DNA from: Parcubacteria group bacterium
Lineage (GTDB): Bacteria > Patescibacteriota > Minisyncoccia > Phycocordibacterales > 21-14-all-47-15
Assembly (NCBI GenBank): GCA_016181845.1
Contig: JACOYO010000006.1
Location: forward strand, 1-52,447
DNA length: 52,447 bases
Reading direction: 5' to 3'
This document shows, one piece after another, positions 1,394 through 44,073 of this stretch (the stretch's first letter is position 1; every line of letters begins with the position of its first letter). Below the pieces are notes generated by a model, which did no database searches, was not told the origin of the DNA, and was given only the letters and a program-made list of their open reading frames with translations. The translations under genes were made by a program, and so were the position numbers.

Positions 1394-1610
1394 TCATATC
1401 CGCCACCAGCATTTATCGCTTTTGTTTGCAAACGTTTGCAAAGCAATCTCGTCATGACGAGATTTAATAGATACCTTTATTTTACAACAAACTGATATAT
1501 TTTGCTTTTATTTTTTGACCAAACTGGGGATAACTTTAAATAAACGAAAAATGATAAGCGTAAAATGAAAAAGAATGACAATCTATCGAGATTTGGCATT
1601 CATTACCCAC

Positions 1611-1740
1611 TTTGAATTACGAAACGCAAAGACGTCCGACCTCTGCAGTGGTAACACATCGGCATTGGCTATAAATAAAGTAATTACCACGTCAGAGGTC
1701 GGACGTCTCGTTAGTGCTGTTGCTTTGCGTTTTTCGATTT
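1611..1740 (+). repeat. Palindromic MITE/REP-like element, copy A (core 1629-1708)
   Basis: Core AGACGTCCGACCTCTGCAGTGGTAA-(conserved ~25 nt CATCGGCATTGGCTATAAATAAAG)-TAATTACCACGTCAGAGGTCGGACGTCT. The outer arm TTTGAATTACGAAACGC is present on the left and degenerate on the right. Confidence 0.85.
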
Positions 1741-1767
1741 GCGCTTTACTTTTTGAACAGCGATACG

Positions 1768-1797
1768 TTGCACGTCATGCCTTGTCGGGTATATAAT
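1768..1797 (+). promoter_or_regulatory. Sigma70-like promoter of the first pilin gene (TTGCAC-18 nt-TATAAT). The ATG lies 7 nt after the -10 box, implying a leaderless start.
   Basis: ttgcac at 1768-1773 and tataat at 1792-1797; ATG at 1805; no SD. Confidence 0.5.
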
Positions 1798-1804
1798 AAA
1801 AACA

Positions 1805-2188
1805 ATGACTAAAAAAACTGCCGTGATTAATCGTATGTTTTGGTCCGTTCTGTCTGCGGCGCTTTTTTTACCGACAATAATTGCACGGGCTGCTAGCACC
1901 GGACAAGTACCAAAGCAAAGCGTATTTAAACTTAAGAACCCGATAGGCGCAGAGTCATTCCAAGAACTCATCCAAAAAATGCTCGGGGTCATGCTTGATA
2001 TCGGCGTGCCTATCGCGACGCTCTTCATCATTTATTCCGGTTTTCTTTTCGTCAAAGCGCAAGGCAATCCGGAAAAATTAAAAGAAGCGAAAGAAACTTT
2101 TTTCTGGACAATTGTAGGCACGGCGGTTCTTCTCGGCGCATGGGTGTTGGCACAGGCGATTAAGGGAACGATTGAGTCGCTCAAATAA
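1805..2188 (+). CDS. TrbC/VirB2-like (T4SS-pilin-type) small membrane protein, paralog 1
   Basis: Signal-like N-terminus, then two TM helices separated by a charged loop (GFLFVKAQGNPEKLKEAKETFFWTIVGTAVLLGAW). Same architecture as the next three ORFs. This small-protein family is abundant in CPR genomes. Confidence 0.7.
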   Translation: MTKKTAVINRMFWSVLSAALFLPTIIARAASTGQVPKQSVFKLKNPIGAESFQELIQKMLGVMLDIGVPIATLFIIYSGFLFVKAQGNPEKLKEAKETFFWTIVGTAVLLGAWVLAQAIKGTIESLK

Positions 2189-2197
2189 AATAGAATC

Positions 2198-2758
2198 ATG
2201 AACCAGGAATCAGAAATCAGAAATCAATTTTTTACAAAACAAATTAAGAAGTCCAACTTCTGCATTGGCATGAAATCGGCATTGACCGTTAAGACGTCCG
2301 ACCTCTGGATTGGTAAAACATCAGCATTGGCCACAAATAAAGTAATTACCACATCAGAGGTCGGACGTCTCGCCGGCTTTTCGCAAGCAGGGCTTCTCAT
2401 TGTGTTGTTTATTTTTTTATCGTTTCCTCTTTCAATTTATGCCGCTAACGAATGTTCTTTCCCACCAGCAACATTCAAAGCTTTTATTTGCGCGACGATA
2501 GAAACGATACTCTCCCCGCTCATCCCCATTCTCTTCGGCCTTGCTCTTGTCGTGTTTCTTTGGGGAGTCGCGAGATATGTGATTAGAGGCGCTAATGACG
2601 AAAAAGAACGAACGCAAGGAAAACAAATTATGCTCTGGGGTATCATCGGCCTCTTTGTGATGGTATCGGTGTGGGGGCTTGTAAAAATTGTTGGTGGTGC
2701 GTTTGGACTTGAAAACACCACTAATCCGCCCAAAGTAAGCATACCGAGAATACCGTAA
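2198..2758 (+). CDS. TrbC/VirB2-like pilin paralog 2. The true start is probably internal (GTG ~2402 or TTG ~2330 inside the repeat).
   Basis: The C-terminal 115 aa align with paralogs 3/4 (FLWGVARYV..DEKERTQGKQIMLWGIIGLFVMVSVWGLV). The first ~60 codons are a read-through of the palindromic repeat (KTSALATNKVITTSEVGRL). Confidence 0.65.
   Translation: MNQESEIRNQFFTKQIKKSNFCIGMKSALTVKTSDLWIGKTSALATNKVITTSEVGRLAGFSQAGLLIVLFIFLSFPLSIYAANECSFPPATFKAFICATIETILSPLIPILFGLALVVFLWGVARYVIRGANDEKERTQGKQIMLWGIIGLFVMVSVWGLVKIVGGAFGLENTTNPPKVSIPRIP
2246..2370 (+). repeat. Palindromic element, copy B: degenerate left half (2246-2288) plus full core (2290-2370)
   Basis: The same ~80-bp core sequence, lying inside the annotated 5' part of pilin paralog 2. 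Confidence 0.85.
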
Positions 2759-2855
2759 AGAGACGTCCGACTTCTTTATCCACAAAGAAAGTTGTCTTTA
2801 CCTGCTGTATATTCTATGATAAAGACACTTGATTATGAGTATCAAATAATGGTCG

Positions 2856-2935
2856 AAGACGTCCGACCTCTGAATTGGTAAAATACCGGCATTTGCCACA
2901 AATAAAGTAATTACCACATCAGAGGTCGGACGTCT
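2856..2935 (+). repeat. Palindromic element, copy C
   Basis: Full core between pilin paralogs 2 and 3. A 15-nt fragment AGACGTCCGACTTCT also sits at 2761-2775, directly after the paralog 2 stop. Confidence 0.85.
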
Positions 2936-2987
2936 TACACGCAGATATCGGACTTCTTTAATGTTTTAACAATTTAAATATAAAAAT

Positions 2988-3326
2988 ATGATGAAAAAAT
3001 TATTTATAATCTTTGGCGTTATCGTCATGCCCTCAATCGCGTTTGCGGCCGGAGAACTTTTTACCAAAGTAAGCGAGCTTCTTAATTCAGTTATCCCAAT
3101 TATTATTACCATCGCGGTAATCTATTTCCTTTGGGGGGTTGGTAAATATATAATGTCTTCCGGAGATTCTGAAAAGCAGGAGGAGGCGCGCGGCATGATG
3201 ATTTATGGTATTATCGGCCTCTTTGTGATGGTATCGGTATGGGGGCTTGTCAATATACTTGTCCAAACAGTCGGGCTTGATAGTGGCGCCATTCCTAATC
3301 TCCCGCAGGTACCTTCTACCCGTTAA
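2988..3326 (+). CDS. TrbC/VirB2-like pilin paralog 3
   Basis: Signal peptide MMKKLFIIFGVIVMPSIAFA, then YFLWGVGKYIMSSGDSEKQEEARGMMIYGIIGLFVMVSVWGLV. Followed by its own terminator. Confidence 0.75.
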   Translation: MMKKLFIIFGVIVMPSIAFAAGELFTKVSELLNSVIPIIITIAVIYFLWGVGKYIMSSGDSEKQEEARGMMIYGIIGLFVMVSVWGLVNILVQTVGLDSGAIPNLPQVPSTR

Positions 3327-3347
3327 TAATTCTACAAAAAGATTTCT

Positions 3348-3385
3348 AAAAACAACCGCGCTTTATAGCGAGGTTGTTTTTTTAT
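3348..3385 (+). terminator. Rho-independent terminator after pilin paralog 3
   Basis: aaaaacaaccgcgc-ttat-agcgaggttgttttttt: GC-containing hairpin followed by a T-run. Confidence 0.6.
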
Positions 3386-3404
3386 ATCGTTCATAATATC
3401 ATGT

Positions 3405-3692
3405 ATGTATATGAATCTCTTTCAAACACCAGTCGCTTACGCCGCAACAGGCATTGAAGACACTATCGGAAAAATCACCAGTAACATCATACAGCCGATT
3501 ATCGGATTTTTGTTTGCGCTTGCGCTCGCTATGTTTCTTTGGGGCATCGTGCAATTTATTGCAAACGCAGAAAATGAAGAAAAGTTAAGCGAAGGCAAAG
3601 AACACATGCTTTGGGGAATTGTCGGCATGGTTATCATGGTGTCGGTCTTCGGCATCATGAATCTCATATGCAAAACCATTGGCGCGTGCTAA
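3405..3692 (+). CDS. TrbC/VirB2-like pilin paralog 4
   Basis: MFLWGIVQFIANAENEEKLSEGKEHMLWGIVGMVIMVSVFGIM has the same two-TM layout. CATAAT at 3392-3397 lies 7 nt before the ATG. Confidence 0.7.
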   Translation: MYMNLFQTPVAYAATGIEDTIGKITSNIIQPIIGFLFALALAMFLWGIVQFIANAENEEKLSEGKEHMLWGIVGMVIMVSVFGIMNLICKTIGAC

Positions 3693-3763
3693 TCACTTGG
3701 AGACTTCGCCTCCAAGTGATTACGAAACACCGACAGGAAGTCTAACTTCGACATTGACCGTTT

Positions 3764-3910
3764 GGACGTCCGACCTCTGCAGTGGTAAAACATCGGTATT
3801 GGCTATTTAGACGTCCGACCTCTGAATTGGTAAAACATCGGTATTGGCCACAAATAAAATAATTACCACATCAGAGGTCGGACGTCTCACACATCAGAGG
3901 TCGGACGTCT
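3764..3910 (+). repeat. Palindromic element, copy D: extra left arm, full core (3808-3886) and extra right arm
   Basis: Left arm 3764-3807, full core, then a second CATCAGAGGTCGGACGTCT at 3890-3910. Preceded by an 11-bp hairpin aatcacttgga...tccaagtgatt at 3691-3721. Confidence 0.85.
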
Positions 3911-3926: not shown

Positions 3927-3961
3927 AAAGGGGAACACATTTATGTGTTCCCCTTTTGTTT
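3927..3961. terminator. Bidirectional rho-independent terminator between the pilin array and the convergent 141-aa gene
   Basis: aaaggggaacaca-ttta-tgtgttcccctttt followed by gttttt; A-run on the other side. Confidence 0.7.
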
Positions 3962-4387: not shown

Positions 4388-4402
4388 ATTTTCCCCTTTT
4401 CT

Positions 4403-4453
4403 TTATTTCGGCTAGCGAGGAGCGAAATGAGAATCGCAATTCTCATTTCGTCC
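4403..4453 (+). repeat. GAAATGAGA palindrome repeat, copy 1
   Basis: tttatttcggctagcgaggagcGAAATGAGAATcgcaATTCTCATTTCgtcc. The same ~50 nt recurs inverted at 11177-11228. Confidence 0.8.
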
Positions 4454-4505
4454 GAGCGAAGACGAAATATAGGTTAATACCTCGTGGCTTTGCCACGAGG
4501 AACCT

Positions 4506-5447: not shown

Positions 5448-5475
5448 GACATTACTCCTTTCTTTATTGTTTACT

Positions 5476-5598
5476 GTGAATTACGAAACGCCGACGAGGA
5501 GACGTCCGGCCTCTGCCGTGGTAAAACATCGGCATTGGCCATAAATAAAGTAATTACCACATCAGAGGCCGGACGTCTTTGCGTTTCGTAATTCAAAG
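5476..5598 (+). repeat. Palindromic element, copy E, with complete outer inverted repeat (core 5499-5578)
   Basis: GTGAATTACGAAACGC ... GCGTTTCGTAATTCAAAG flank the core. Both core arms carry the paired change CCGGCCTCTG / CAGAGGCCGG, versus CCGACCTCTG / CAGAGGTCGG in the other copies. Confidence 0.85.
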
Positions 5599-5776
5599 TT
5601 ATTTAATTTTCAAACAACTTTGTTTATTGTTAATATAATGCACCAAAATATAAAAAAGTCAAATACATCCGTTTGTTGGACATTTGTTGGACATCGGATG
5701 TCCAACAATACAAATACGTTCATTCGTTGGGCATGTTGGACATCCGATGTCCAACAACGTGCCCAACAACAATAAA

Positions 5777-6547
5777 TCAGTCATTCGGAATGGCGGTTTG
5801 AAGCATGGCAAGCACGGCGCAGAAATCATCGGGAAGCGGCGCTTTAAGATTCAAACACGCGCCTGAAGGTATTGCGAGTTCAAGAGAATACGCATGGAGC
5901 GCTAGGCGCCCGATACCCCCCTTTTCACGCGGCAGACACGGCTTTCCGGTCGCGTAAAGCGAATCACAAAGCACGGGATAGCCGATGGATTTCAGATGCA
6001 CCCTGATTTGGTGCGTCCGTCCGGTTTTTGGACACACTTCAAGATAGGTAACCGGAAAATCACTTGGGGGTTTAGCCCCCAAGTGCCCGCGCGCGAGCAC
6101 TTTGTATTCTGTTGTCGCCTCACGAAGCACTCCGCGCGCGCCGTATTCAGCCGACCATTTGCGAAAATCGCTCCGGCTCTTCCCTATCGACTTTTCAATC
6201 ACACCTTCGTCTTTTTTCATACTTCCGTATACAATCGCGCGGTACGTTTTTTTAATCTCCCGCGACTGAAATTGTTTTTTCAAAAAGAGAAACGCTTCAT
6301 TTGTTTTTGCTATTACCAAAACACCAGACGTGTCTTTATCCAAACGATGCACAATGCCAGGGCGAAAAATTGTTTCCCCGCTTGTGAGCACGAGCGGTTC
6401 GCCGACATTTTTTATTTCCGGATATTTTTCTAAAATCCAATCCACAAGCGTCCGGTCAGTGCTCCGCCCGTCGGGGTGGACTACCAATCCCGCCGGCTTA
6501 TTTATTGCGATGATATCTTTATCTTCGTAGATAACCGATATTCCCAT
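5777..6547 (-). CDS. RluA-family pseudouridine synthase
   Basis: HRLDKDTSGVLVIAKT catalytic-Asp motif; TGRTHQIRVHL motif. Confidence 0.85.
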   Translation of the reverse strand: MGISVIYEDKDIIAINKPAGLVVHPDGRSTDRTLVDWILEKYPEIKNVGEPLVLTSGETIFRPGIVHRLDKDTSGVLVIAKTNEAFLFLKKQFQSREIKKTYRAIVYGSMKKDEGVIEKSIGKSRSDFRKWSAEYGARGVLREATTEYKVLARGHLGAKPPSDFPVTYLEVCPKTGRTHQIRVHLKSIGYPVLCDSLYATGKPCLPREKGGIGRLALHAYSLELAIPSGACLNLKAPLPDDFCAVLAMLQTAIPND

Positions 6548-6628
6548 ACTTAGCTTATTAGCTTGTTAGGTTTTAGCTTATTAGGAAATTTCTAACAAGC
6601 TAACAAGCCAATTTTCCTAACAAGCTAT
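6548..6628. repeat. Word-type intergenic spacer (TTAGC/TTAGG words) forming a ~17-bp imperfect hairpin
   Basis: gcttattagcttgttag pairs with ctaacaagctaacaagc. The same words recur at 15546-15619, 16905-17010, 48980-48998, 49626-49659 and 52120-52203. Confidence 0.7.
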
Positions 6629-7468
6629 CTAGGTTCGTTTTTTCTTGGTACGGCGAGAGACAATGAGAAAATTGGAATACTTTTTTGGACGGCGAGTTTT
6701 GACTCCGCGGATTCCTCTGCCCCAGAGGTTCTTCGGACGGCGCATGCCGGCTCCTTGTCTGCCTTCTCCTCCTCCAAACGGATGGTCTACCGGGTTCATG
6801 GCAGAACCGCGCACTGTCGGACGAATACCCTTCCATCGCGAACGCCCCGCTTTACCGAAATTAACCAGTTTGTGCTCGGCATTTGATACTTCACCAATTG
6901 ACGCCCATGAAGCATCAGGTATTTTTCGTATTTCCCCTGAAGGCATCTTGATGTGCGCGTAACCGGCATCGTTTGCGACAAGCTCGGCGTAGTTGCCCGC
7001 CCCGCGCACGAGTTTCGCGCCGTTATTCGGCTGAAGTTCAATATTAAAAATAAATGTGCCGACCGGAATAAGTTTGAGTGGTAAACGATTTCCCGCTTTT
7101 AATTCGGCATTTTCAGAAATCAAAAACGTATCTCCGACTTTGAGCGATTTTGGCACCAACACATAGCGGCGTTCTCCGTCGGCATAACAGACAAGCGAAA
7201 TAAAGCCCGAGCGATATGGGTCGTATTCAACCGTTTCAATTTTTGCAGGAATATTTTTTTTGTCGTATCTAAAATCAATCAAACGGTGCAAGCGTTTGTG
7301 TCCGCCTCCTTGATGGCGCACGGTAATCCGTCCCGCGCTGTTTCTTCCGGCTCTATTTGCCCTGCCTTTCGTAAGCGGTTTATACGGTTCGGACGCAGTC
7401 AAGACATCACGATATGAAATCGTGCTCATTTGGCGGCGTGATGGAGTTGTCGGGTGATATTTTTTCAT
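6629..7468 (-). CDS. rplB: 50S ribosomal protein L2
   Basis: Full-length L2 sequence (GRNSAGRITVRHQGGGHKR, MNPVDHPFGGGEG). Confidence 0.97.
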   Translation of the reverse strand: MKKYHPTTPSRRQMSTISYRDVLTASEPYKPLTKGRANRAGRNSAGRITVRHQGGGHKRLHRLIDFRYDKKNIPAKIETVEYDPYRSGFISLVCYADGERRYVLVPKSLKVGDTFLISENAELKAGNRLPLKLIPVGTFIFNIELQPNNGAKLVRGAGNYAELVANDAGYAHIKMPSGEIRKIPDASWASIGEVSNAEHKLVNFGKAGRSRWKGIRPTVRGSAMNPVDHPFGGGEGRQGAGMRRPKNLWGRGIRGVKTRRPKKYSNFLIVSRRTKKKRT

Positions 7469-7499
7469 ATTCTATTCATCAATATATATAGCAAAAAAA

Positions 7500-7775
7500 T
7501 TAAAGCGTTTCAATCGTCTCACCCTTTTTAAGAAATACCATCGCTTTCTTTATTTTGGCGGTAAATCCGACATGACCTCGCATAAATACTTTTTTTGACG
7601 GTACCATAATCATGCGCACTTTGCGCGGCGTAACGTTATACAGCAAATGCACTGCCTTAATAACTTCTCGCTTGTTTGCCTTCTGTGCAACCTCAAATAC
7701 ATACACGCCTTTTTCAGAAAGCGATGTGGCTTTTTCGGTAACGCGCGGACGTTTGATTATAGCGTGTTCTTTCAT
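7500..7775 (-). CDS. rplW: 50S ribosomal protein L23
   Basis: L23-like sequence and its position between L4 and L2. Confidence 0.9.
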   Translation of the reverse strand: MKEHAIIKRPRVTEKATSLSEKGVYVFEVAQKANKREVIKAVHLLYNVTPRKVRMIMVPSKKVFMRGHVGFTAKIKKAMVFLKKGETIETL

Positions 7776-7784
7776 GGTATAAAA

Positions 7785-8447
7785 TTAGAGAGATTTCTTT
7801 GCTAAAAAAGCGATTGAAGATTCCGGATTGGTAATTATGAGATACTTATAACGCAATACTTCCATCGGGTTGATATCTTGCAATGCACTCATGCCGACAT
7901 TGGGAAGATTCTGAAAACTTTTTTGGGTATCGCGAGATTCGCCGTTCATTGCCAAAAGCGCGGCATTCTTTGTTTTTTTAACCAGCCCTGGCATTTCTGC
8001 CACGACGCTCAATGTTTTAAGCATAGACTGCGCCGCTTTTGTTTTGGGAGCTGAAAATGAAATAGCATCAACAAACAAAATTTCTTTATCACGCAATTTT
8101 TGAGAGAGCGCGGAGTAGAGCGCTTTGGTGCGCATTTTTTTGTTTAATTTTTTTGCAAAAATCTTTTCATTTGTCGGCCCGTGCGCCACTCCACCTCCCA
8201 CCCAAATCGGCGAACGTGTTGAACCATGCCGCGCGCGGCCGGTGCCTTTCTGCTTCCACGGTTTTTTGCCTCCTCCGCGAACATCGCCGCGGTCTTTCGC
8301 GTGCGCTACCGGAGTGCGCGCGTTTGCCTCCATGGCAACCACTGCCTGATGCACCAAATCGGCATTCCATTTCACGCCAAACACCGCTTCCGGTAAACTC
8401 ACCGTGCCGACTTCTTTGCCTGTTTGATTGTAGATTGTTGCGTTCAT
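7785..8447 (-). CDS. rplD: 50S ribosomal protein L4
   Basis: GGGKKPWKQKGTGRARHGSTRSPIWVGGGVAHGP. Confidence 0.95.
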   Translation of the reverse strand: MNATIYNQTGKEVGTVSLPEAVFGVKWNADLVHQAVVAMEANARTPVAHAKDRGDVRGGGKKPWKQKGTGRARHGSTRSPIWVGGGVAHGPTNEKIFAKKLNKKMRTKALYSALSQKLRDKEILFVDAISFSAPKTKAAQSMLKTLSVVAEMPGLVKKTKNAALLAMNGESRDTQKSFQNLPNVGMSALQDINPMEVLRYKYLIITNPESSIAFLAKKSL

Positions 8448-8462
8448 GAAACTTAAAATATG

Positions 8463-8561
8463 AAAAAATTTTGAATTTTTAATTTTGAATAAATTTTGAA
8501 TGTCTTAATTTAACATTAGGATTTGATTCAAAATTCAAAATTGGAAATTCAAAATTATTTT
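8463..8561. repeat. Word-type spacer (ATTTTGAA octamers) folding into a ~35-bp imperfect hairpin between rplC and rplD
   Basis: The left arm aattttgaatttttaattttgaat is complementary to the right arm attcaaaattggaaattcaaaatt. Confidence 0.7.
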
Positions 8562-8567
8562 ATTATG

Positions 8568-9206
8568 CTATCCTCTGATTTCCAAAAGCGTGCCTCGGCG
8601 GCCTGGAACCGCGCCAGAAACGATAAGCGTTTGTGCTTCCGTGTCGGTGGCGAGTACCGTCAGATTTTTTATCTGAATTCGGTCGCCGCCCATACGTCCC
8701 GCCATCCGCATTCCTCTGATAACCCTGCCCCCGGCGCGTCCTCCGCCTCCGATAGAACCCGGCTCGCGTTCTGAATGTTTTTGCCCGTGCGAACGCGGCC
8801 CGCCCTTAAATCCATGCCGCTTTACCACCCCTTGAAATCCTTTTCCTTTTGAAACCCCAGCAACGCTTACCATGTCTCCTTTGGAGAAAACAGAAACATC
8901 AATGCTGTTTCCGACTGCGACACCATCCAAACCGCCAGATGTCTTTGGACGAAATTCTTTCGCGTGCTGAAAAAAACCTTTGTCTCCAAAATGCCCTTTT
9001 TGCGCTTTTGTAAGACGTTTGCCGCTTGTTGTCCCATATCCGACTTGCACCGCTTCATAGCCGTCTTTTTCTTTGCTGCGGATTTGCGTGACCACAATCG
9101 GGCCTGCGGAAATAACCGTCGCGGGATGCACCGTGCCGTTTTCATCAAACACTTGCGTCATGTATTGTTTTTTTCCAAGAATGTATTTCATTTTGTTTAG
9201 AATCAT
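8568..9206 (-). CDS. rplC: 50S ribosomal protein L3
   Basis: L3 sequence (GKKQYMTQVFDENG..., FKGGPRSHGQKHSEREPGSIGG). The start could be the second Met at 9191. Confidence 0.95.
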   Translation of the reverse strand: MILNKMKYILGKKQYMTQVFDENGTVHPATVISAGPIVVTQIRSKEKDGYEAVQVGYGTTSGKRLTKAQKGHFGDKGFFQHAKEFRPKTSGGLDGVAVGNSIDVSVFSKGDMVSVAGVSKGKGFQGVVKRHGFKGGPRSHGQKHSEREPGSIGGGGRAGGRVIRGMRMAGRMGGDRIQIKNLTVLATDTEAQTLIVSGAVPGRRGTLLEIRG

Positions 9207-9262
9207 GAATTAGGAAGCAAGAATCAGGAACAAAAAACTGCAAAACAATTTTTTGTAACGGC

Positions 9263-9345
9263 AAGACGTCCGACCTCTGATGTGGTAATTACTTTATTTA
9301 TTATAGCCAATGCCGATGTTTTACCACTGCAGAGGTCGGACGTCT
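9263..9345 (-). repeat. Palindromic element, copy F, inverted orientation, inside the S10 operon between rpsJ and rplC
   Basis: Reverse complement of the core: AGACGTCCGACCTCTGATGTGGTAATTAC...TTACCACTGCAGAGGTCGGACGTCT. Confidence 0.85.
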
Positions 9346-9362
9346 TATGATTCGCGATCCAC

Positions 9363-9758
9363 TTAAAGCATCTTCACGTCAATATTTACCCCCGACGGCA
9401 AGTTTAAGTTTGTCAACGCCTCTATCACGTTTGCCGCCGGATTTAAGATGTCAATCAAACGCTTGTGCACTCGCATTTCAAATTGTTCTCGCGCATTTTT
9501 ATATACGAATGCGGCGCGATTGACGGTGTATTTCTTAATCTCGGTCGGTAGAGGCACCGGCCCAACTATGGTTGCGCCGTACCGAAGCGCGGTATCAATA
9601 ATCTGCTTCACCGAATTATCAAGCACTTTGTGTTCATAGGCCTGAACGCGAATGCGCAATTTTGCGATGGCTTCTTCTTTTTTCTGACGAGGTTTCGCCT
9701 TCAGCGTTGCGGCTTTCGGAGTCTTCGCGATTTTTTTTATTTTTGTTTCAGTGGGCAT
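9363..9758 (-). CDS. rpsJ: 30S ribosomal protein S10 with a ~30-aa Lys-rich N-terminal extension
   Basis: The S10 core begins RIRVQAYEHKVLD. The ORF is 131 aa, whereas S10 is usually ~100 aa. Confidence 0.93.
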   Translation of the reverse strand: MPTETKIKKIAKTPKAATLKAKPRQKKEEAIAKLRIRVQAYEHKVLDNSVKQIIDTALRYGATIVGPVPLPTEIKKYTVNRAAFVYKNAREQFEMRVHKRLIDILNPAANVIEALTNLNLPSGVNIDVKML

Positions 9759-10979: not shown

Positions 10980-11078
10980 AAAGTTTTTAGCGACGAAACA
11001 TTACTCTGCGAGAACAGATGGGTAATGTTTTGCCGTTAGTTACATGCTAAATTATTAATAATATATGTTTCGTCTTCG

Positions 11079-11175
11079 CTCCTTACAGGAGCAGTACACC
11101 TTTTGGATATATTTTCGCTTTCGGCTCAAATCTATCTCAAAAGGTCTTGCGCCGCTCCATGTATTCGCGCCGCAA
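11079..11175 (-). repeat. Three-hairpin structured module (H3-CAGTACA-H2-H1 family), stand-alone copy
   Basis: CTCCTtacaGGAG + CAGTACA + ACCTTTTGGATATATTTT..AAATCTATCTCAAAAGGT + TTGCGCCGC..GCGCCGCAA. Same architecture as the units next to tRNA-Leu(GAG) and downstream of rplK. Confidence 0.7.
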
Positions 11176-11176
11176 C

Positions 11177-11228
11177 GGACGAAATGAGAATTGCGACTCT
11201 CATTTCGCTCCTCGTTAGCCGAAATAAA
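11177..11228 (-). repeat. GAAATGAGA palindrome repeat, copy 2 (inverted relative to 4403-4453)
   Basis: ggacGAAATGAGAATtgcgACTCTCATTTCgctcctcgttagccgaaataaa. Confidence 0.8.
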
Positions 11229-11451
11229 CAACCTATGTCGCATGCAGTGCTTTATTTTTTGTGTTTTTCTTTCAACCCGCCTGCATACACGATGCAGGCG
11301 TCGTGAAAAAACAAAAAAACGCACTTCTGCGATAGTGCGTATATCATAACGCAATAGAAACCCCGCTGTCAAGCAATTGTACAGCGGGGTTAGTTTCAAA
11401 AAATTTTCTGCGAAGTCTGTGAAGGACGGCCCTTCACAGAGATTCTCCTGC

Positions 11452-12823: not shown

Positions 12824-14962
12824 TTATTTTCGCGCTTCAATAATTGTCTGCGCGACATTTTGCGGCACAATCGCATAACTATCAAACTCCATTACATAAT
12901 TAGCGCGACCTTCGGTGAGCGAGCGGAGCGTCGTGATGTAGCCAAACATTTCTGAGAGCGGCACTTTTGCTTTAATGACCTTAAACATCGCGCGGTCTTC
13001 CATGCCTTCAATCTGCGCGCGGCGCGAACTCAAGTTGCCGGTAATGTCGCCCATGAATTTTTCGGGCGTGGAAACTTCCACGCGCATGATTGGTTCCAAA
13101 AGCACCGGCTTTGCTCGTTTTGCCGCGTCTTGAAACGCCATTGACGCCGCGATTTTGAACGCGATTTCTGAAGAGTCAACGTCGTGGAACGAACCGTCAT
13201 AGAGCTCTGCGGAAATATCCGTCATCTTATAGCCGGCAACGACACCGCGTTCCATTCCTTCTTTGATTCCTTTTTCAGATGGAGTAATAAACTCCTGCGG
13301 AATAACCCCGCCTTTGATAGAGTCAATAAATTCAAACCCGGGATATCGTCTAATATTTTTCGGCACCTTCGCTTCAGGGTCAATTTTTTCAAGCGGCTTG
13401 ATTCTCAATCTCACATGTCCGTACTGCCCGCGGCCGCCCGATTGCTTGATGTATTTCCCTTCCGCTTCAGCCGGTATCGTGATGGTTTCCTTGTACGCCA
13501 CTTGCGGCTTGCCGACATTTGCCTCCACCTTAAACTCCCGCTTCATGCGGTCAACAATGACATCCAGGTGAAGCTCTCCCATGCCCCAGATAACGGTTTC
13601 CAATGTTTCCGGGTCAGAGGTAATCCTGAAAGTCGGGTCCTCATCGGAGAGACGTTTCAGCGCCATGCCCATTTTTTCCTGGTCGGCTTTTGTTTTCGGT
13701 TCAATACGCATTGATACCACCGGCTCGGGGAAAACAATTTTCTCAAGAATAATCGGATGCGCTTCATCGCAGAGCGTATCGCCCGTGGTCGTGTCTTTCA
13801 GCCCCACCGCGGCGGCAATTTCTCCCGCGTACACCTGCTTCACTTCTTCGCGATGGTTGGCATGCATCCGCAAAATACGCCCGATGCGCTCTTTTTTGTC
13901 TTTGCTTGAATTGTAGACATACGAACCAGATTCAAGCGTGCCTGAATAGACGCGGAAATAGGTGAGCTGTCCCACAAACGGGTCGGACCACAATTTGAAC
14001 GCGAGCGCAGAAAACGGCTCCTCATCGCTTGAGTGGCGCACTTCCTCTTTGTCTGTTTCCGGATTTATTCCTTTGAAAGGCGGGATGTCCAAAGGCGACG
14101 GCAAGTAATCAATCACTCCATCAAGCACGAGCTGGACGCCGATATTTTTCAGAGCGGAGCCCGCAAACACCGGCACGAGCGCGCCGGTAAGTGTCGCCTT
14201 GCGCAGGGTTTGTTTCAATTCAGCGAGTGGAATTTCTTTTCCCTCCAGATACGCGTTCATTTGCGTCTCATTGTTTTCAACAATTTTTTCAATCAGCTCA
14301 CGGCGATATTTCTCCGCGTCAGATTTCAATTCATCGGGAATAAGAATCTCTTTTATTTCGTTCCCCATGTTTCCTTCAAATAGGTATCCTTTCATCGTGA
14401 GCAAATCAATCACTCCGCGATGTTTTTCTTCTTCGCCGATAGGAATCTGCATCCGCACCGCGTGTTTGGTGAGACGGTCAAGAATCGTATGATAGGAACG
14501 TTCAAAAGAGGCGCCGGTACGGTCCAGTTTATTTATAAAACAGATACGAGGCACATGATATTTGTCTGCTTGGCGCCACACGGTTTCAGATTGCGGCTCA
14601 ACGCCGGCAACTCCGTCAAAAACAACAACGCCTCCGTCAAGCACTTTGAGAGAGCGTTCAACTTCTACAGTGAAATCAACGTGTCCGGGTGTGTCAATAA
14701 TGTTGATGCGATGTTTGAAAGACGCGTCTTTGCCCGCGTAGGTCGGCGTCCAAAAAGCGGTCGTGGCCGCTGATGTAATCGTGATGCCACGCTCTTGCTC
14801 CTGCTCCATCCAGTCCATAACCGCCGCGCCCTCGTGCACTTCGCCGATTTTGTGCGATACTCCGGTATAAAAAAGCACCCGCTCGGTAGTGGTTGTCTTC
14901 CCCGCGTCAATGTGCGCGATGATGCCGATATTTCGTACTTTTTCCAGTGGATAATCTCTCAT
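12824..14962 (-). CDS. fusA: Elongation factor G
   Basis: [21 protein letters not shown]; 712 aa. Confidence 0.98.
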
Positions 14963-15074
14963 TGTTTTATGAATTATGAATCAAGAATCATGATTTATGA
15001 ATAAAAAATCGCAAAGCGATTTTTTACATTTCCAATTCATAATTCCTAATTCGTGATTCTTGATTCCTAACAAA
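14963..15074. repeat. Word-type spacer (GAATCAT/GAATTAT heptamers) forming inverted arms around a central aaaaaatcgc-aaa-gcgatttttt hairpin
   Basis: Tandem heptamers ttatgaa ttatgaa tcaagaa tcatgat on the left; cataatt cctaatt cgtgatt cttgatt on the right. The arms are partly complementary. Confidence 0.7.
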
Positions 15075-15545
15075 CTACCACGCAAAATGGGCAAATGCTT
15101 TGTTTGCTTCAGCCATTTTGTGCGTGTTCTCTCTTTTCTTAACCGACTCGCCTTCGTTTTTGCTTGCGGCGATCAATTCATCGGCAAGACGACGGTGCAT
15201 CGGCACTCCTTTTTTATTTCTAGCCGATTCAACAATCCAGCGCATCGCAAGCGAAAGCCGCCGCTCGGCTCGCACTTCGCGCGGCACTTGATAGTTGGCA
15301 CCGCCGACACGGCGAGACCGGACTTCCATAAGCGGGCCGACATTTTTGAGCGCTTCCTCAAATACTTCAACCGGGCTGGCGTCATTTGTTTTTTCTTTAA
15401 TCAAATCAAACGCGCCGTACACGACATTTCGCGCCGCATTTTTTTTGCCGCGGGTCATAAGGTAATTGATAAACTTCCCCACTTTTGGAGAATCATAAAC
15501 GCGGTCTGGTCCCGGAATATTTCGATTTTTAACTGGTCTTCGCAT
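15075..15545 (-). CDS. rpsG: 30S ribosomal protein S7
   Basis: S7 sequence, 156 aa. Confidence 0.96.
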   Translation of the reverse strand: MRRPVKNRNIPGPDRVYDSPKVGKFINYLMTRGKKNAARNVVYGAFDLIKEKTNDASPVEVFEEALKNVGPLMEVRSRRVGGANYQVPREVRAERRLSLAMRWIVESARNKKGVPMHRRLADELIAASKNEGESVKKRENTHKMAEANKAFAHFAW

Positions 15546-15619
15546 AATATATTAGCTTATTAGGTTTTTGCTTGTTAGCTTTTTAGGAATTCCCATAACG
15601 CCCCTAACAAGCTGAAAAA

Positions 15620-16146: not shown

Positions 16147-16184
16147 ACTCTTACTATTTTCGCGGTCGCGAAAATAGTAAGAGT
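16147..16184. repeat. 38-bp palindrome ACTCTTACTATTTTCGCG-GT-CGCGAAAATAGTAAGAGT, copy 1, ~115 bp upstream of rpsL
   Basis: Near-identical copies at 43303-43342 (same centre, GT) and 44036-44073 (centre AC, i.e. inverted). Confidence 0.9.
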
Positions 16185-21972: not shown

Positions 21973-22282
21973 TGCGCGGGAGAGGATTTGAATCTTACAG
22001 ATTCAGTACACCTTTTGGATATATTGCTTCGCAAGCTCGCAATCTATCTCAAAAGGTTTTCAAATCCGCATAACGCTTCGCGAAAGCGAAGCTATGCCTC
22101 CCGCGCATATTACGCTTCGCTCCAATATGCGCGGGAGAGGATTTGAATCTTACAGATTCAGTACACCTTTTGGATACATTGCTTCGCAAGCTCGCAATCT
22201 ATCTCAAAAGGTTTTCAAATCCGCATAACGCTTCGCGAAAGCGAAGCTATGCCTCCCGCGCATATTACGCTTCGCCCCAATA
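21973..22282 (-). repeat. Two tandem 155-bp units immediately 3' of tRNA-Leu(GAG). Each ends in a copy of the tRNA's 3' 22 nt and begins with its inverted complement.
   Basis: tgcgcgggagaggatttgaa starts at 21973, 22128 and 22283, giving a period of 155. The units are ~98% identical and differ at about three positions that I saw. Confidence 0.9.
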
Positions 22283-22366
22283 TGCGCGGGAGAGGATTTG
22301 AACCTCCAAGCCCTTGCGGGCGCTACCACCTCAAGGTAGTGCGTCTACCAATTTCGCCACCCGCGC
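22283..22366 (-). tRNA. tRNA-Leu (anticodon GAG), long variable arm; no encoded CCA
   Basis: GCGCGGG acceptor, CTACC-TTGAGGT-GGTAG anticodon arm, variable arm CGCCCGCAAGGGCTT, T arm GGAGG-TTCAAAT-CCTCT. Confidence 0.9.
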
Positions 22367-22378
22367 AAAATTGTATTT

Positions 22379-27348: not shown

Positions 27349-30300
27349 TCACTTTTCGTTTTGCGTTTGTATACGCACTCTAAACACCGCATCGTCAACG
27401 GTGATGTCCGCGCCATCTGATACGGCGGCAAAAAATATTTCTCTGGCACGAAGCGCTTTTTTAATATAGGAAAGATACGTATTGATTATTTCTTTTCCAA
27501 AATTATTTGCTTCTATGGTGATAATAATTTCATCGCTCGTGGAAAATTCTTTTTCTTTCCTTATATCCTGCAGGGCGCGGACAAATTCACGCGCCTGTCC
27601 TTCTTGTTTGAGTTCGGGTGTTATCAGCGTATCTAATTCCACATCGTTTTCCATTGAGTCGCTAAATGTTATTTCTTTCACATTTACTTCATCTTTAATC
27701 AGTTGCAATAATTCCTCGTTGTTCCTGATTCCTGATTCCTGATTCCTGATTCTTAATGTCATAAGCGGCTGGCGCACTTTAATTTTTGCTTTCATTCGCA
27801 GGTCAAGCGCGAGCGAAACAATGCGTCGTGCTTCTTTCATTTTTTCTATAATTCCAGTCTCCGCTTTCCAGTTTTCAGTCTCCAGTTTCGGCCATTCTTC
27901 AAAATGGACGCTTGCTTTTACTCCGCCCAACCTTTGATACATATCTTCGGCAATAAACGGCAGTATCGGCGCGATAATTTTTGAGAAAGAGAGCAAGACT
28001 TCGCGTGTGGTATTTCGCGCGTGCTCCTTATCTTCCCCCTCTTCCTTAAATCGATCGCGTGAGCGACGAATATACCACGTGGACAAATCATCCACAAAAT
28101 CGCCGACGGGCTTCACCGCGCGGTCAAGCTCGTAGGCATCGAGCGCTTCTTCAATTTGTTTCCCAAGCACGTTTGCGCGCGCAAAAATCCATTCGTCCAA
28201 AACATTTTTTGTTTTGCGTTTTGCGTTTTGCGTTTTTGAATTTTTATACAGTTCAAAAAAAGAGAGTACATTTTCCAAACGCAGAATAACTTTTTTATAT
28301 ACTTCATCCACGCCTTTTTCTGAAAAAAAGAGTGTTTCTCCGCGCACCACCGGCGAAGCAAGCAGATAGTAGCGGAGCGCGTCAGCGCCATAGGTATTGA
28401 TGATATGCGCCGGATCGGGATAATTTTTAAGACGCTTTGACATTTTTTGCCCGTTTTCCGCAAGAATCAAGCCGTTCACAATCACATTTCTATACGCCGA
28501 TTCTCCAAACAGCCCGATTGAAAGCACGAGCATGTTGTAAAACCACCCGCGCGTCTGGTCCAATCCTTCGGCGATAAAATCGGCGGGAAAATTGGCGCGA
28601 AAGAGCTTGCCTTCTTTGGTTGCGTCAGTCCCCATGTAATGAAACTGCGCGTATGGCATAGAGCCCGATTCAAACCAGCAGTCAAAGACTTCGTGGACGC
28701 GGCGCATCATTCCTCCACACTCACTCCGACGCTCACGGTCGGAGTTCCGACCCCTTTGGGTGTCGGAACAATCAAAAATCATTTCATCAATATAAGGTCG
28801 ATGCAGGTCAAGCTCATAATTGTGATTATGAGGAAACGGCACAAACGATAATGCCATTGAGCCGCCGGTTTTAATAAAATCCTCCCCCGCTTTTTCTTTC
28901 ATGGCGACCGCTTCTTTCACATCAGCTCCAAGCGCTCCCGCCGCAAGCATCCACGACGGATACTCGTGCGTCACTATCAGTATGGTTTTTCCTTGATACA
29001 TGGCGTCCGTTTCAGAAAGGAAATCCATAAGACGATTTTTCATATCAAGCAATGTTTCTCCGCGCGGTGTCGGTTTATAAAATTTTTCTTCCGGCGATGA
29101 AAAATAATCGTGATACACGGACACCGGTTTGCCATCCAAATCGCCCGTGACTAATTCTCTTAAACGATTATCCACGATAATATCAGCGCCCGAAATATCC
29201 AACGCCTCGGCAAGAATATCGGCGCTTTCCTTGGCGCGCACAAATGGCGACGTGAAAATAAAATCAATTTTTTTCTCTTTCAGTTTCTTCGCGGCGGTTT
29301 TCACTTCCTCTTTACCTTTTTCGGTCAGGTGATGCGGAGTATCCGGATTGCCGCTCAACACATTTTCTTTATTGTGTTCCGCTTCTCCATGCCGTATCAA
29401 AATATATTCATTGCGCGGTTTTTTTGCTTTAGTAATATCCGCTAGCGAGCCGACAATGTGAATAGTCGCGCACTTTTCGCATTTCCAAACCGGAATCGGC
29501 GCGCCCCAATATCGCGAGCGCGAGATCGCCCAATCGCGCGCCCCTTCGAGCCACTTGCCAAAACGTCCGTCACGGATATGCTCCGGCACAAAACGGATTT
29601 TTTTATTCGCCTCAATCAGGAGGTCTTTAAATTTTGTCACCCCAACAAACCATGATGACGCCGCATAATTTAGAAGCGGCGTATCGCATCGCCAACAATG
29701 CGGATAGGGGTGTGTTATTTTTTCTTTCGCAAAGAGAAGTCCGCGGTGCGCGAGATTTTTGATAATCATGACATCTGCTTCTTCTGGATTCTCTTTCGGC
29801 TTTACTAACGCTCCGGCAAAATCGGCAACCTCTGTCTTGAACCGCCCGTCCATGCCGACATGCTGAATAAACGGCAAATCATATTTTTTACCGAGCTCCA
29901 TATCGTCTTCACCGAATGACGGTGCGATGTGCACGATGCCAGTCCCGCTTTCCGTGTTCACAAAATCCGCCGCGTACACTTTCCAGCCGTTTTCACGATT
30001 GGAAAGTTTTTCGTCTTTTGAATAATAGTCAAAAATCGGCTTGTATTTTTTACCTATAAGCTCGCTTCCTTTTATTTCTTCAAGAATTTCATACTCTTCT
30101 TTTATTACCGTGAGCCGCTCTTTCGCAATAATATACGAATTCATGATTCCTAATTCATGATTCATGATTCCGATTTTTACATACTCAATATCAGGATTCA
30201 CCGCGAGCGCCACGTTCCCCGGCAATGTCCACGGCGTCGTCGTCCACGCAAGCATGAACGTCCCGGGTTCATCGACAAGTTCAAATTTTACATACACCGA

Positions 30301-30921
30301 AATATCAGTGATGTCTTTATATCCCTGCGTCACCTCGGAAATCGCAAGCGTCGTCTCGCACCGCGGACAAATGTGCATAGACTTGAACCCTTCATAAATG
30401 AGCCCTTTGTCATAAAGCGTCTTGAACGCCCACCAGATTGATTCCGTGTACTGCCAGTCCATCGTGCGGTAGCTTTTTTCCATGTCTACCCATCTCCCCA
30501 TGCGCGGCACCACTTCTTTCCAGTCCGTGTCATACCGAAGCACACTCGCTTTCGCGGCTTCGTTAAATTTTTCAACGCCAAGCGCCTCAATATCTTTTTT
30601 ATTTTTCAGACCGAGCTCTTCTTCTATTAAGTTTTCAATCGGAAGACCGTGACAATCCCAACCCCACTGCCGCCGCACATATTTCCCTTTCATCGTCTGA
30701 TAACGCGGGATGACATCTTTGATGGTGCCGGCAAGCAAGTGCCCGTAATGCGGAAGGCCCGTTGCAAACGGCGGCCCGTCGTAAAAGACAAACGGTTCGC
30801 CTTCTTTGTTTTTTTCAAGTGATTTTTGAAAAATATTGCGCTCGCGCCAAAAACGAAGGATTTCCATTTCCCTTTCAGCAACTTTGGATATTTCTTTTTT
30901 TTGTTCCGGTTCTTTTTTCAT
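27349..30921 (-). CDS. ileS: Isoleucine--tRNA ligase, type 2 (eukaryote-like), with an inserted histidine-phosphatase-like domain
   Basis: PPFATGLPHYGH (HIGH) and KMSKRLKNYPDP (KMSKS), plus editing domain motifs. The insert NEYILIRHGEAEHN...IVTHEYP is at ORF residues ~506-700. An ATG start at 30921 is preferred over the TTG at 30927. Confidence 0.95.
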   Translation of the reverse strand: MKKEPEQKKEISKVAEREMEILRFWRERNIFQKSLEKNKEGEPFVFYDGPPFATGLPHYGHLLAGTIKDVIPRYQTMKGKYVRRQWGWDCHGLPIENLIEEELGLKNKKDIEALGVEKFNEAAKASVLRYDTDWKEVVPRMGRWVDMEKSYRTMDWQYTESIWWAFKTLYDKGLIYEGFKSMHICPRCETTLAISEVTQGYKDITDISVYVKFELVDEPGTFMLAWTTTPWTLPGNVALAVNPDIEYVKIGIMNHELGIMNSYIIAKERLTVIKEEYEILEEIKGSELIGKKYKPIFDYYSKDEKLSNRENGWKVYAADFVNTESGTGIVHIAPSFGEDDMELGKKYDLPFIQHVGMDGRFKTEVADFAGALVKPKENPEEADVMIIKNLAHRGLLFAKEKITHPYPHCWRCDTPLLNYAASSWFVGVTKFKDLLIEANKKIRFVPEHIRDGRFGKWLEGARDWAISRSRYWGAPIPVWKCEKCATIHIVGSLADITKAKKPRNEYILIRHGEAEHNKENVLSGNPDTPHHLTEKGKEEVKTAAKKLKEKKIDFIFTSPFVRAKESADILAEALDISGADIIVDNRLRELVTGDLDGKPVSVYHDYFSSPEEKFYKPTPRGETLLDMKNRLMDFLSETDAMYQGKTILIVTHEYPSWMLAAGALGADVKEAVAMKEKAGEDFIKTGGSMALSFVPFPHNHNYELDLHRPYIDEMIFDCSDTQRGRNSDRERRSECGGMMRRVHEVFDCWFESGSMPYAQFHYMGTDATKEGKLFRANFPADFIAEGLDQTRGWFYNMLVLSIGLFGESAYRNVIVNGLILAENGQKMSKRLKNYPDPAHIINTYGADALRYYLLASPVVRGETLFFSEKGVDEVYKKVILRLENVLSFFELYKNSKTQNAKRKTKNVLDEWIFARANVLGKQIEEALDAYELDRAVKPVGDFVDDLSTWYIRRSRDRFKEEGEDKEHARNTTREVLLSFSKIIAPILPFIAEDMYQRLGGVKASVHFEEWPKLETENWKAETGIIEKMKEARRIVSLALDLRMKAKIKVRQPLMTLRIRNQESGIRNNEELLQLIKDEVNVKEITFSDSMENDVELDTLITPELKQEGQAREFVRALQDIRKEKEFSTSDEIIITIEANNFGKEIINTYLSYIKKALRAREIFFAAVSDGADITVDDAVFRVRIQTQNEK
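27724..27751. repeat. Four tandem heptamers CCTGATT inside ileS (encode RIRNQESGIRN)
   Basis: cctgattcctgattcctgattcctgatt read directly from the sequence. Confidence 0.9.
28211..28231. repeat. Three tandem heptamers GTTTTGC inside ileS (encode KTQNAKRKTK)
   Basis: gttttgcgttttgcgttttgc. The same AAAACGC word builds the spacers at 27283-27365 and 41540-41660. Confidence 0.9.
28828..29412 (-). other. Histidine phosphatase superfamily (PGAM-like, branch 1) domain embedded in IleRS
   Basis: RHGE at nt ~29381-29392, FTSPFVRAKESA, RLRELVTGDLDG and ILIVTHEYP, found in the order expected for His_Phos_1. Confidence 0.7.
30139..30173. repeat. Five tandem heptamers ATTCATG/ATTCCTA inside ileS (encode GIMNHELGIMNS)
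   Basis: attcatg attccta attcatg attcatg attccga. Confidence 0.9.
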
Positions 30922-31112
30922 GCCCAAAGTGCTTTCATCGTATCACGGACGAGAACAGTTGAAAAATCGGTTGTATTCTTTATTTTTCGAAAAATCACCG
31001 CCTGCCGCCACCTTTTAATGACGAGGCGGGATGGCGGGTCATCAAAGAAACTCCGGCTTGAATAAAAACAATCGTAGTGTGCGCGCTTACACTCAAGCTC
31101 CAAAAATTTTAA

Positions 31113-36635: not shown

Positions 36636-36805
36636 CCTTTGAATTACAAAACATCAAGAGGCCAGACTTCTGCATTGATATAAAATCGGCATTCCTTGTT
36701 TAGACGTCCGACCTCTGAATTGGTAAAACATCGGCATTGGCTATAAATAAAGTAATTACCACATCAGAGGTCGGACGTCTTGTCGGCGTTTCGCAATTCA
36801 AAGTT
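36636..36805 (+). repeat. Palindromic element, copy G: outer inverted repeat, degenerate half and full core (36701-36780)
   Basis: CCTTTGAATTACAAAACA ... GCGTTTCGCAATTCAAAGTT flank the core. Confidence 0.85.
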
Positions 36806-37101
36806 ACCTCACTTCAACTCCTTACAGGAGCAGTAGTCACGAATATTTTTCTGTTGAAAAATTTCGCGACCACGACTCACTCGCTCTGGCTCGCTCCGTC
36901 TTTGAATTGCTTCAAGTGTTCGCAATTCAACCTTTTGGACATATTGCTTCGTAAACTCGCAATCTATCTCAAAAGGTCGATTGATGTTTCGTTACCTCAC
37001 ATCAACTCCTTACAGGAGCAGTACACCTTTTGGACTTTTTACTTCGCGCGGCTCGTAAAAATTCTCAAAAGGTCCATCGATGTTTCTTATTTCACATCGA
37101 T
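36803..37101 (-). repeat. Three consecutive hairpin modules of the H3-H2-H1 family, directly downstream of and overlapping the rplK stop
   Basis: GTTACCTCAC(T/A)TCAACTCCTTACAGGAGCAGTA occurs twice (36803, 36991). ACCTTTTGGA...TCTCAAAAGGT hairpins at 36930-36977 and 37024-37072. The terminal hairpin catcgatgt..acatcgatg includes the rplK stop codon. Confidence 0.75.
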
Positions 37102-43302: not shown

Positions 43303-43342
43303 CACTCTTACTATTTTCGCGGTCGCGAAAATAGTAAGAGTG
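43303..43342. repeat. 38-bp palindrome, copy 2 (downstream of the PaaX-like gene)
   Basis: cACTCTTACTATTTTCGCGGTCGCGAAAATAGTAAGAGTg. Confidence 0.9.
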
Positions 43343-44035: not shown

Positions 44036-44073
44036 ACTCTTACTATTTTCGCGACCGCGAAAATAGTAAGAGT
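44036..44073. repeat. 38-bp palindrome, copy 3: inverted centre, 21 bp upstream of the PaaX-like ATG
   Basis: ACTCTTACTATTTTCGCGACCGCGAAAATAGTAAGAGT overlaps a TATGAT -10-like hexamer. Confidence 0.9.

Follow-up and report, generated by a model that had tools for sequence, protein, structure and literature searches.

What does an ~80-bp palindrome do that recurs between the genes of a bacterium, and does so most densely around an array of pilin genes? We consider this question for contig JACOYO010000006.1 of a Parcubacteria group bacterium (assembly GCA_016181845.1), all 52,447 nt of which were analysed and are referred to here as the window. A first-pass annotation had described the palindrome as a dispersed intergenic repeat family resembling miniature inverted-repeat transposable elements (MITEs) or repetitive extragenic palindromes (REPs), and this description is borne out by our analysis. 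The core of the repeat is probably a lineage-specific, non-autonomous, hairpin-forming element of a Paceibacteria-like groundwater bacterium of the candidate phyla radiation (CPR), for which REP doublets forming hairpins (REPINs) are the closest known counterpart and MITEs a looser one. The element belongs to this already known REP/REPIN/MITE kind rather than to a new kind of system; we infer its mobility, the type of enzyme that would copy it and its transcription.

The element was called over the window by reading of the sequence, by a repeat finder and by a covariance model (R1) built from the seven cores. All seven full copies that had been annotated were recovered, within 1-2 nt of their first coordinates, as ~80-nt hairpins accompanied by at least six partial copies or lone arms; six full copies lie on the plus strand and one is inverted (9264-9346). 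The core reads AGACGTCCGACCTCTG-nnn-TGGTAA...TTACCA-nnn-CAGAGGTCGGACGTCT, which is the bipartite palindrome with a TGGTAA...TTACCA inner stem that had been noted before, and the cores share 86-95% pairwise identity. With up to three mismatches allowed, the 15-mer arm GACGTCCGACCTCTG has 21 matches in the window compared to 0.5 expected, a number reached in none of 100 shuffles. The covariance model gives 102-111 bits to the seven copies, 53-57 bits to their reverse strands and never more than 27 bits to unrelated window sequence. All seven copies are intergenic, for which the chance probability is ~7e-8.

Each copy is predicted to form a hairpin in which a small internal loop separates a 16-18-bp outer stem from a 6-7-bp inner stem, with an asymmetric loop of ~26 nt at the tip, and the folding energy of the cores ranges from -41 to -44 kcal/mol (z -6.5 to -9.4). 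The 22 pairs of the two helices are Watson-Crick in all seven copies, with no G-U pair or mismatch among the 154 stem cells, and the sole stem change is a compensatory A-T to G-C pair in the arms of copy 5 (5500-5579). In the core alignment, 2 of 44 paired columns vary compared to 14 of 38 unpaired columns (Fisher p = 5e-4). The loop had been described as conserved like the stem, which holds only in a relative sense, as the loop drifts faster; the suggestion drawn from joint loop and stem conservation, that the element is more than a terminator, is not supported on that ground, and the absence of a U-tract and the position of one copy in the rpsJ-rplC spacer make the element unlike a terminator. 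Lone arms carry 0-4 mismatches compared to 0-1 for arms within doublets (Mann-Whitney p = 0.005, in a small sample). The only internal palindrome in the arm AGACGTCCGACCTCTG is the 6-mer GACGTC, and inspection reveals no convincing internal hairpin.

The family is dispersed well beyond the window, where it occurs in excess copy number, while within the window it is restricted to intergenic positions. This was assessed in Logan contigs from four groundwater runs of one study (X1-X4) that hold window sequence, with contig depths summed to give a rough copy number. In all four runs the assemblies break inside each element, and core depth far exceeds flank depth: 265-940 compared to 8-11 in X1, 483-1413 compared to 23 in X2, 126-271 compared to 6-8 in X3 and 553-1784 compared to 26 in X4. 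These ratios correspond to ~20-100 genome equivalents, or ~40-90 at the best-conserved part of the core, and ~6-8 genome equivalents carry the right outer repeat as well. Between 44 and 70 contigs per run bear the element, many of them running into mutually different flanks. Since the contigs for which a depth is listed agree in every run with the coverage of the window itself (8.8-17 in X1), most of these copies probably belong to the same genome. Confinement of the copies to the contig had been named as the outcome that would point to local duplication only; instead, cores are ~20-100 times as deep as their flanks and many of the flanks are unrelated. The metagenome copies also repeat the architectures seen in the window, namely an upstream half copy ending in ...CATTGACCGTT, a downstream duplicated right arm and 45-nt tandem junctions. 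The genome-wide majority variant of the loop is GCCACAAAT, and the 3' half of the loop, AAATAAAGTAATTACC, has no common variant among the many metagenome copies.

The pilin array provides a relative date for the copies that it holds. Four small adjacent proteins match PF18895 (T4SS_pilin, type IV secretion system pilin) with E-values of 5e-10 to 4e-12, confirming the first identification of these neighbours as pilins. The pilin genes separated by elements are only 22-43% identical in protein and 48-57% in DNA, compared to 86-95% for the cores that lie between them. Because of this difference, the elements must either be younger than the pilin duplications or have been homogenised long after them.

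Taken together, these data are consistent with the following model. The replicating unit would be the ~80-bp core, composed of two invariant inverted 16-nt arms, a 6-7-bp inner stem and a faster-drifting 26-nt spacer, with a longer form adding a 17-19-nt outer inverted repeat and with the left half and the right arm also found partly duplicated in tandem. Intact hairpins would be copied in trans by an enzyme whose gene lies at another site of the genome; by analogy, this would be an HUH/Y1 transposase of the RAYT (REP-associated tyrosine transposase) or IS200-IS605 type, which acts on single strands and recognises hairpins. Because new copies would come from intact hairpins, doublets would stay nearly identical while lone arms decay, and insertions would survive only in intergenic spacers. 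Copies in co-directional spacers, such as those of the pilin array and of rpsJ-rplC, would very likely be transcribed into a perfectly paired RNA hairpin of ~23-25 bp that would be tolerated inside operons and would not stop transcription. An effect of the hairpin on mRNA processing or stability is plausible, and would be a side effect or at most a secondary co-option.

REPINs match most of this description. Bertels and Rainey (2011, PMC3116915) described them as conserved inverted 16-mers around a less conserved spacer, with compensatory changes and decayed singlets, and the element shares with them the two conserved inverted 16-nt sequences, the less conserved spacer, a hairpin in the 70-110-nt range, a stem kept by compensatory changes, strictly extragenic positions, tens to hundreds of copies, singlets more decayed than doublets, tandem or ordered clusters and the lack of a target-site duplication. 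It differs from them in that no RAYT gene could be linked to it in the window, its arms do not clearly have the form of palindromic REPs bearing a conserved 5' tetranucleotide, its host belongs to the CPR/Patescibacteria and its sequence resembles no described REP. Like the Correia elements of Neisseria (CREE/NEMIS) and other MITEs, the element is an intergenic, multi-copy inverted repeat in the ~80-165 bp range, probably often co-transcribed with its neighbours, that has long and short forms and for which RNA hairpins or promoter-like hexamers are plausible. Unlike them, its core lacks a TA or other target-site duplication, the internal hairpin rather than the termini is best conserved, no more than 3-5 of the 7 copies have the outer inverted repeat, there is no sequence similarity and no parent insertion sequence is known. 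By the usual criteria, a classical MITE can be rejected on the first two of these points. ERIC/IRU, RUP/BOX and the Rickettsia palindromic elements (RPEs) are likewise imperfect palindromes, of ~100-150 bp, in transcribed spacers of compact genomes, and RPEs, which are found in host-dependent bacteria with reduced genomes, can be part of a reading frame, as an open reading frame (ORF) at 2198-2758 runs here through a copy into pilin 2. In contrast with these families, to which the element has no sequence similarity, in-frame use is only a possibility here and all copies lie outside recognisable protein domains.

Several observations weigh against a REPIN- or MITE-like element. No transposase or RAYT gene is encoded within the 52-kb window: in agreement with the first-pass annotation, a scan of 48 window ORFs against Pfam (including Y1_Tnp) yielded no transposase, although 8 of the 48 matched no family at the thresholds used. 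The arms lack the obvious imperfect palindromes of classical REPs. The contigs of the four samples contain no presence/absence polymorphism, excision joint or precise skip of a copy, with the limitation that contigs hide rare variants, and the searched collections hold no relative near enough for an empty-site comparison (best L3 identity 64%). The copy number of ~20-100 is a rough figure, derived from summed contig depths. Finally, the strict invariance of the stem could equally reflect selection for a host function, and four occupied pilin-array spacers (p = 0.0015) would not be predicted by purely random selfish spread. Target-site duplications, a check proposed at the outset, are absent from the core borders of all seven copies, which fits HUH-type or REP-type elements; the long-form borders show a possible TTA/TTA at copy 5 only and TTC/TTA at copy 7. 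A conserved target tetranucleotide at the left border, in the style of IS200/IS605, was not seen.

As far as the searched collections show, the family appears to be lineage-specific. The exact two-arm pattern had no match in GTDB species genomes or JGI metagenomes, the half-element and loop patterns had none in IMG/VR, and blastn against plasmids and phages returned no match. The covariance model identified no homologue in 135 CPR loci around rplC (~1.6 Mb), where its weak matches were generic hairpins, and translations of both open element frames found no candidate among 5.8 billion proteins. In Rfam 15, only four tRNAs of the window reach the gathering score, and with an E-value threshold the copies obtain only sub-threshold matches to generic microRNA hairpins; the initial suggestion of a small RNA gains nothing from this search. 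We found no paper describing such elements in CPR/Patescibacteria. The gene content of the window is that of a CPR chromosome of the Paceibacteria/Parcubacteria type (EF-Tu, rpsJ-rplC-rplD-rplW-rplB, EF-G, S12, aminoacyl-tRNA synthetases and L11/NusG/SecE), and searches with ribosomal L3 in GTDB genomes and JGI metagenomes found relatives that are at best ~64% identical, from metagenome-assembled genomes of Kaiserbacteria, Paceibacterota and Patescibacteria. Neither pilin 1 nor EF-Tu of the window had an exact match among recorded proteins.

Within the pilin array, the copies are arranged differently from the first account, which had placed one after each pilin gene: one copy lies before each of pilins 1, 2 and 3 and one after pilin 4, and the interval from pilin 3 to pilin 4 has none. 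Copy 1 (1630-1709, plus strand, 106.4 bits) lies in a divergent spacer, 95 nt 5' of the pilin-1 ATG (1805); the left arm of an outer inverted repeat, ACTTTGAATTACGAAACGC, is found at 1609-1627 (plus), and its right partner at ~1724-1745 is degenerate. Copy 2 (2292-2371, plus, 107.8 bits) is located between pilin 1 (stop at 2188) and the hydrophobic leader of pilin 2, and a degenerate left half copy at 2240-2284 (plus), consisting of the arm GAAGTCCAACTTCTG and the left loop, lies 45 nt 5' of it. A lone decayed left arm, GACGTCCGACTTCTT (2762-2776, plus), is followed by copy 3 (2857-2936, plus, 108.5 bits), which lies 51 nt 5' of the pilin-3 ATG (2988) and is itself followed by a decayed extra right arm (2942-2956, minus). 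Copy 4 (3809-3888, plus, 108.3 bits) is 3' of pilin 4 (stop at 3692) and 5' of a terminator-like hairpin (3927-3956). Directly 5' of it is a well-preserved left half copy, arm plus left loop (3757-3806, plus), which shares the GGTATTGGC variant with it, and a duplicated right arm (3890-3910, plus) follows it. Left halves recur exactly 45 nt 5' of full copies, at 2240, 3757 and, for copy 7, 36650.

The spacers of the array, all four of which were called occupied (p = 0.0015), provide the best hint of a local preference or co-option, and a high local density of short, tolerant spacers would account for the same occupation too. In three cases a pilin start follows the copy at a distance of 30-95 nt. 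The recombination between pilin paralogs that had been proposed as a consequence of the repeats left no sign in the four metagenome samples, in which the joints observed are explained by other loci or by ambiguity of the assembly graph.

The copies may also affect how the array is read. A spurious peptide, ...TSALA(I/T)NKVITTSEVGRL, had been attributed to several ORFs, and it does arise from the element, with the restriction that only copies 1, 2 and 5 keep the frame open across the entire core, whereas TGA interrupts it in copies 3, 4 and 7. At copy 2, a 186-aa ORF (2198-2758, plus) begins 10 nt past the pilin-1 stop and stays open through the half copy and the core into pilin 2. Past the end of copy 2, the only starts ahead of the pilin-2 hydrophobic leader are GTG 2402 and TTG 2405, either of which would give a leader without a charged N-region; in-frame starts within or upstream of the copy-2 element are TTG 2327 (in the loop), ATG 2270 and ATG 2198, and the frame is open for 68 codons. 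Pilin 2 may therefore take its start or N-region from the element, much as Rickettsia RPEs are read in frame, with initiation within a -41 kcal/mol hairpin being unlikely unless the ribosome comes from upstream.

The remaining three copies lie in other contexts. The most complete long form (5473-5599, plus; 127 nt) surrounds copy 5 (5500-5579) with both arms of the outer repeat (5475-5491 and 5581-5597), and the sequence from 5470 to 5605 folds to -69 kcal/mol (z -10.2). Copy 5 is antisense to an SPFH gene on the minus strand, 52 nt upstream of its start (5447). Next to it is a near-perfect hairpin of 94 nt (5675-5768; -54.8 kcal/mol, z -9.9) made of two GGACATC(G/C)GATGTCC palindromes; the same pair of 15-mers occurs in a distant CPR metagenome contig (L154, 1028-1071), and a similar motif lies 5' of rplC in another locus (L085, 433-495). 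Copy 6 (9264-9346, minus, 102.6 bits) has no outer repeat and lies in sense orientation in the ribosomal S10 operon, where 16 nt separate it from the rpsJ stop (9363) and 57 nt from the rplC start (9206). This operon is split, in that a pseudouridine synthase gene comes after the end of rpsJ-rplC-rplD-rplW-rplB (6629-9758, minus) at 6629, while rplV-rpsC-rplP (50146-51648, minus) lies 43 kb away on the same strand, which would be either a true rearrangement or an assembly join at a repeat. Copy 7 (36702-36781, 111.5 bits), the nearest to consensus of the seven, is contained in a long form (36638-36803, plus) with a degenerate outer repeat (36638-36654 and 36786-36802) and a degenerate left half (36656-36699); it lies antisense between rplK (37087-37506, minus) and a dCTP-deaminase gene (35387-36499, minus).

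The outer inverted repeat that had been annotated is real (TTTGAATTACGAAACGC, 17-19 nt) and is restricted to some copies: it is present on both sides only at copy 5 (5475/5581), on the left only at copy 1 (1611), degenerate at copy 7 (36638/36786), remnant-like at copies 2-4 and absent from copy 6. Wherever it is found in the window, a core accompanies it.

The alternative that survives best, although we consider it unlikely, is that the palindrome is a cis-acting RNA module of the host, in which the ~23-25-bp duplex would serve as a site for RNase III or another double-strand nuclease, or as a 3' or 5' stabiliser, and would tune the adjacent cistrons, perhaps having been spread by mobility and kept by selection. 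Precedents are the Correia/NEMIS elements, which RNase III cleaves, and the REPs, which stabilise the mRNA upstream of them. Five of the seven copies are sense within co-directional gene strings, three of them just before pilin starts and one before rplC at the distances given above, and the occupation of all four array spacers, the strictly kept stems with their one compensatory pair and the lack of a common variant in the loop 3' half of metagenome copies all speak for such a module. Many Paceibacteria also carry unrelated long hairpins in the same rpsJ-rplC spacer. However, the copies at 5500 and 36702 are antisense to the local genes, and the complete lack of G-U pairs looks like a constraint on DNA or on both strands, and not on a single RNA strand. 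Moreover, the decayed half copies and the nested or duplicated arms resemble the debris of a selfish element rather than a tuned regulatory site, and the module has neither an Rfam family match nor conservation in any related genome searched.

The hairpins of these relatives deserve a separate description, as they recur in the window itself. They are inverted arrays of ~8-nt periodic words (TTAGCTTA, GAATCATG, AAGTTCGT) that form hairpins of 60-110 nt ending a few nt before start codons, and we refer to them as word hairpins. In the window they lie at 6545-6632 (minus), 14960-15075 (minus) and 15544-15589, and in relatives at 7059-7161, 7780-7888, 15234-15355 and 16360-16456 of L003, in eight copies in L049 and at 16220-18069 of L137. 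They are multi-copy in each genome, each Paceibacteria genome uses different words, and many relatives have one in the rpsJ-rplC spacer; no description of them was found in the literature searched. The element resembles the word hairpins of the window, L003, L049 and L137 in being a long hairpin placed just 5' of starts and in the rpsJ-rplC spacer, in multiple copies of lineage-specific sequence, and the outer repeat GAATTACGAAACGCAAAG of its long form resembles them as well. In contrast with their AT-rich, ~8-nt periodic words, the element core is unique in sequence, richer in GC and has an asymmetric loop.

These likenesses bear on a second alternative, which we regard as improbable: the core could be a hairpin-seeking mobile element that enters the apical part of existing hairpins, whether native word hairpins or its own older copies, and that has been co-opted as a modular intercistronic hairpin for RNA processing or insulation, setting the relative expression of the T4SS pilin paralogs and of rpsJ and rplC. 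Insertion of this kind would explain both the outer inverted repeats and the nested left-half and right-arm architectures. The outer repeat is nevertheless better read as part of a longer form of the element than as an insertion target, because the same sequence is found at three loci and never empty.

It is very improbable, in our estimation, that the palindrome functions primarily as a DNA site, with its arms bound by a dimeric protein (a nucleoid-associated protein, a regulator or a partition or uptake factor) or with an outward promoter, TTGGTA-16-TATAAA, lying across the inner stem and loop and driving the downstream gene, as in some Correia elements. Invariant arms with exclusively Watson-Crick pairing on both strands would suit a protein-binding site, the sequence TTGGTA-N16-TATAAA can be read in three copies (1630, 9264 and 36702), and four of the seven copies point at the start of a downstream gene. 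However, a sigma-70 scan flags no copy and finds 14 promoter-like sites in the region compared to 14.0 expected, the -10-like hexamer is CACAAA in the genome-wide majority variant, and three copies face the 3' end of a convergent gene. Outside the 80-nt unit, moreover, the arm motif hardly occurs, unlike uptake sequences or operators, and on the same ground the element can be rejected as a DNA-uptake sequence. Avoidance of GACGTC as a restriction site can be rejected too, as this hexamer is found 8 times outside the elements compared to ~10 expected in the window.

Hardly credible, and largely refuted by the metagenome copies, is the view that the element is not mobile and that all copies stem from events in and near the pilin array, namely gene conversion and local duplication, whether segmental or tandem: the starts of copies 2 and 3 are indeed spaced by 565 nt, compared to 568 nt for the homologous C-terminal pilin segments, and 45-nt tandem duplications of the left half recur, but copies are also found in unrelated contexts at 5.5, 9.3 and 36.7 kb, metagenome depth and diverse flanks show that copies outside the window are much more numerous, and divergence among the pilin genes greatly exceeds that among the elements separating them.

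Two further identities were considered and rejected. An intrinsic terminator does not fit, as the copies all lack a T-run behind the hairpin and are all passed over by the terminator scan, and copy 6 lies within the rpsJ-rplC spacer, which in many relatives measures no more than 20 nt; the scan does flag neighbouring candidates at 3927-3956 and 4480-4500, and terminator-like hairpins adjoin copies 4 and 7. A TIGR- or CRISPR-like array was rejected because the copies are dispersed and have neither variable spacers nor an associated gene.

The element is not the only repeat in the spacers of the window. A second dispersed repeat of 56 nt, present in two inverted copies that are 95% identical (4399-4454 and 11176-11231), forms the hairpin CGAAATGAGAATCGCAATTCTCATTTCG; at ~17-25 times flank depth in the four runs it appears to be multi-copy genome-wide, with a depth estimate inside the range obtained for the ~80-bp element. 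A third family, CTCCTTACAGGAGCAGTACACCTTTTGGA...CTCAAAAGGT, is found at 11064-11148, 21973-22282 and 36803-37086. It includes a 155-nt tandem duplication (99% identical) adjoining a tRNA-Leu gene (22282-22367), and two of its copies lie immediately to the right of copy 7. The clustering of different repeat families in shared spacers recalls the mosaics of bacterial interspersed mosaic elements (BIMEs). A perfect 38-nt palindrome, ACTCTTACTATTTTCGCGGTCGCGAAAATAGTAAGAGT, occurs three times (16147-16184, 43304-43341 and 44036-44074), with two copies flanking a PaaX-like gene (43434-44015), and looks like an operator or another repeat family. Separately, an isoleucyl-tRNA synthetase-like protein of 1192 aa (27349-30927, minus) carries a histidine-phosphatase domain (PF00300, E = 1e-33) inserted at residues 509-673, within its catalytic domain.

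The genomes of CPR/Patescibacteria are very small and are usually regarded as streamlined. Perhaps 40-90 hairpin repeats of this family, together with the other spacer families, would amount to ~1% of such a genome, and the interest of the element lies in its thriving in a reduced CPR genome and inside essential operons. For sequence analysis, the element has practical consequences, in that it breaks short-read assemblies and creates spurious ORFs and uncertain starts, as for pilin 2, and it could serve as a strain marker. If a cognate RAYT-like gene exists, REPIN-RAYT systems would extend to the CPR, and if the hairpins are processed in RNA, they would give access to operon regulation in organisms still out of reach of genetic manipulation. 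A probable REPIN-like element in this setting would indicate that selfish or semi-domesticated palindromic DNA persists even in reduced, host-dependent bacteria.

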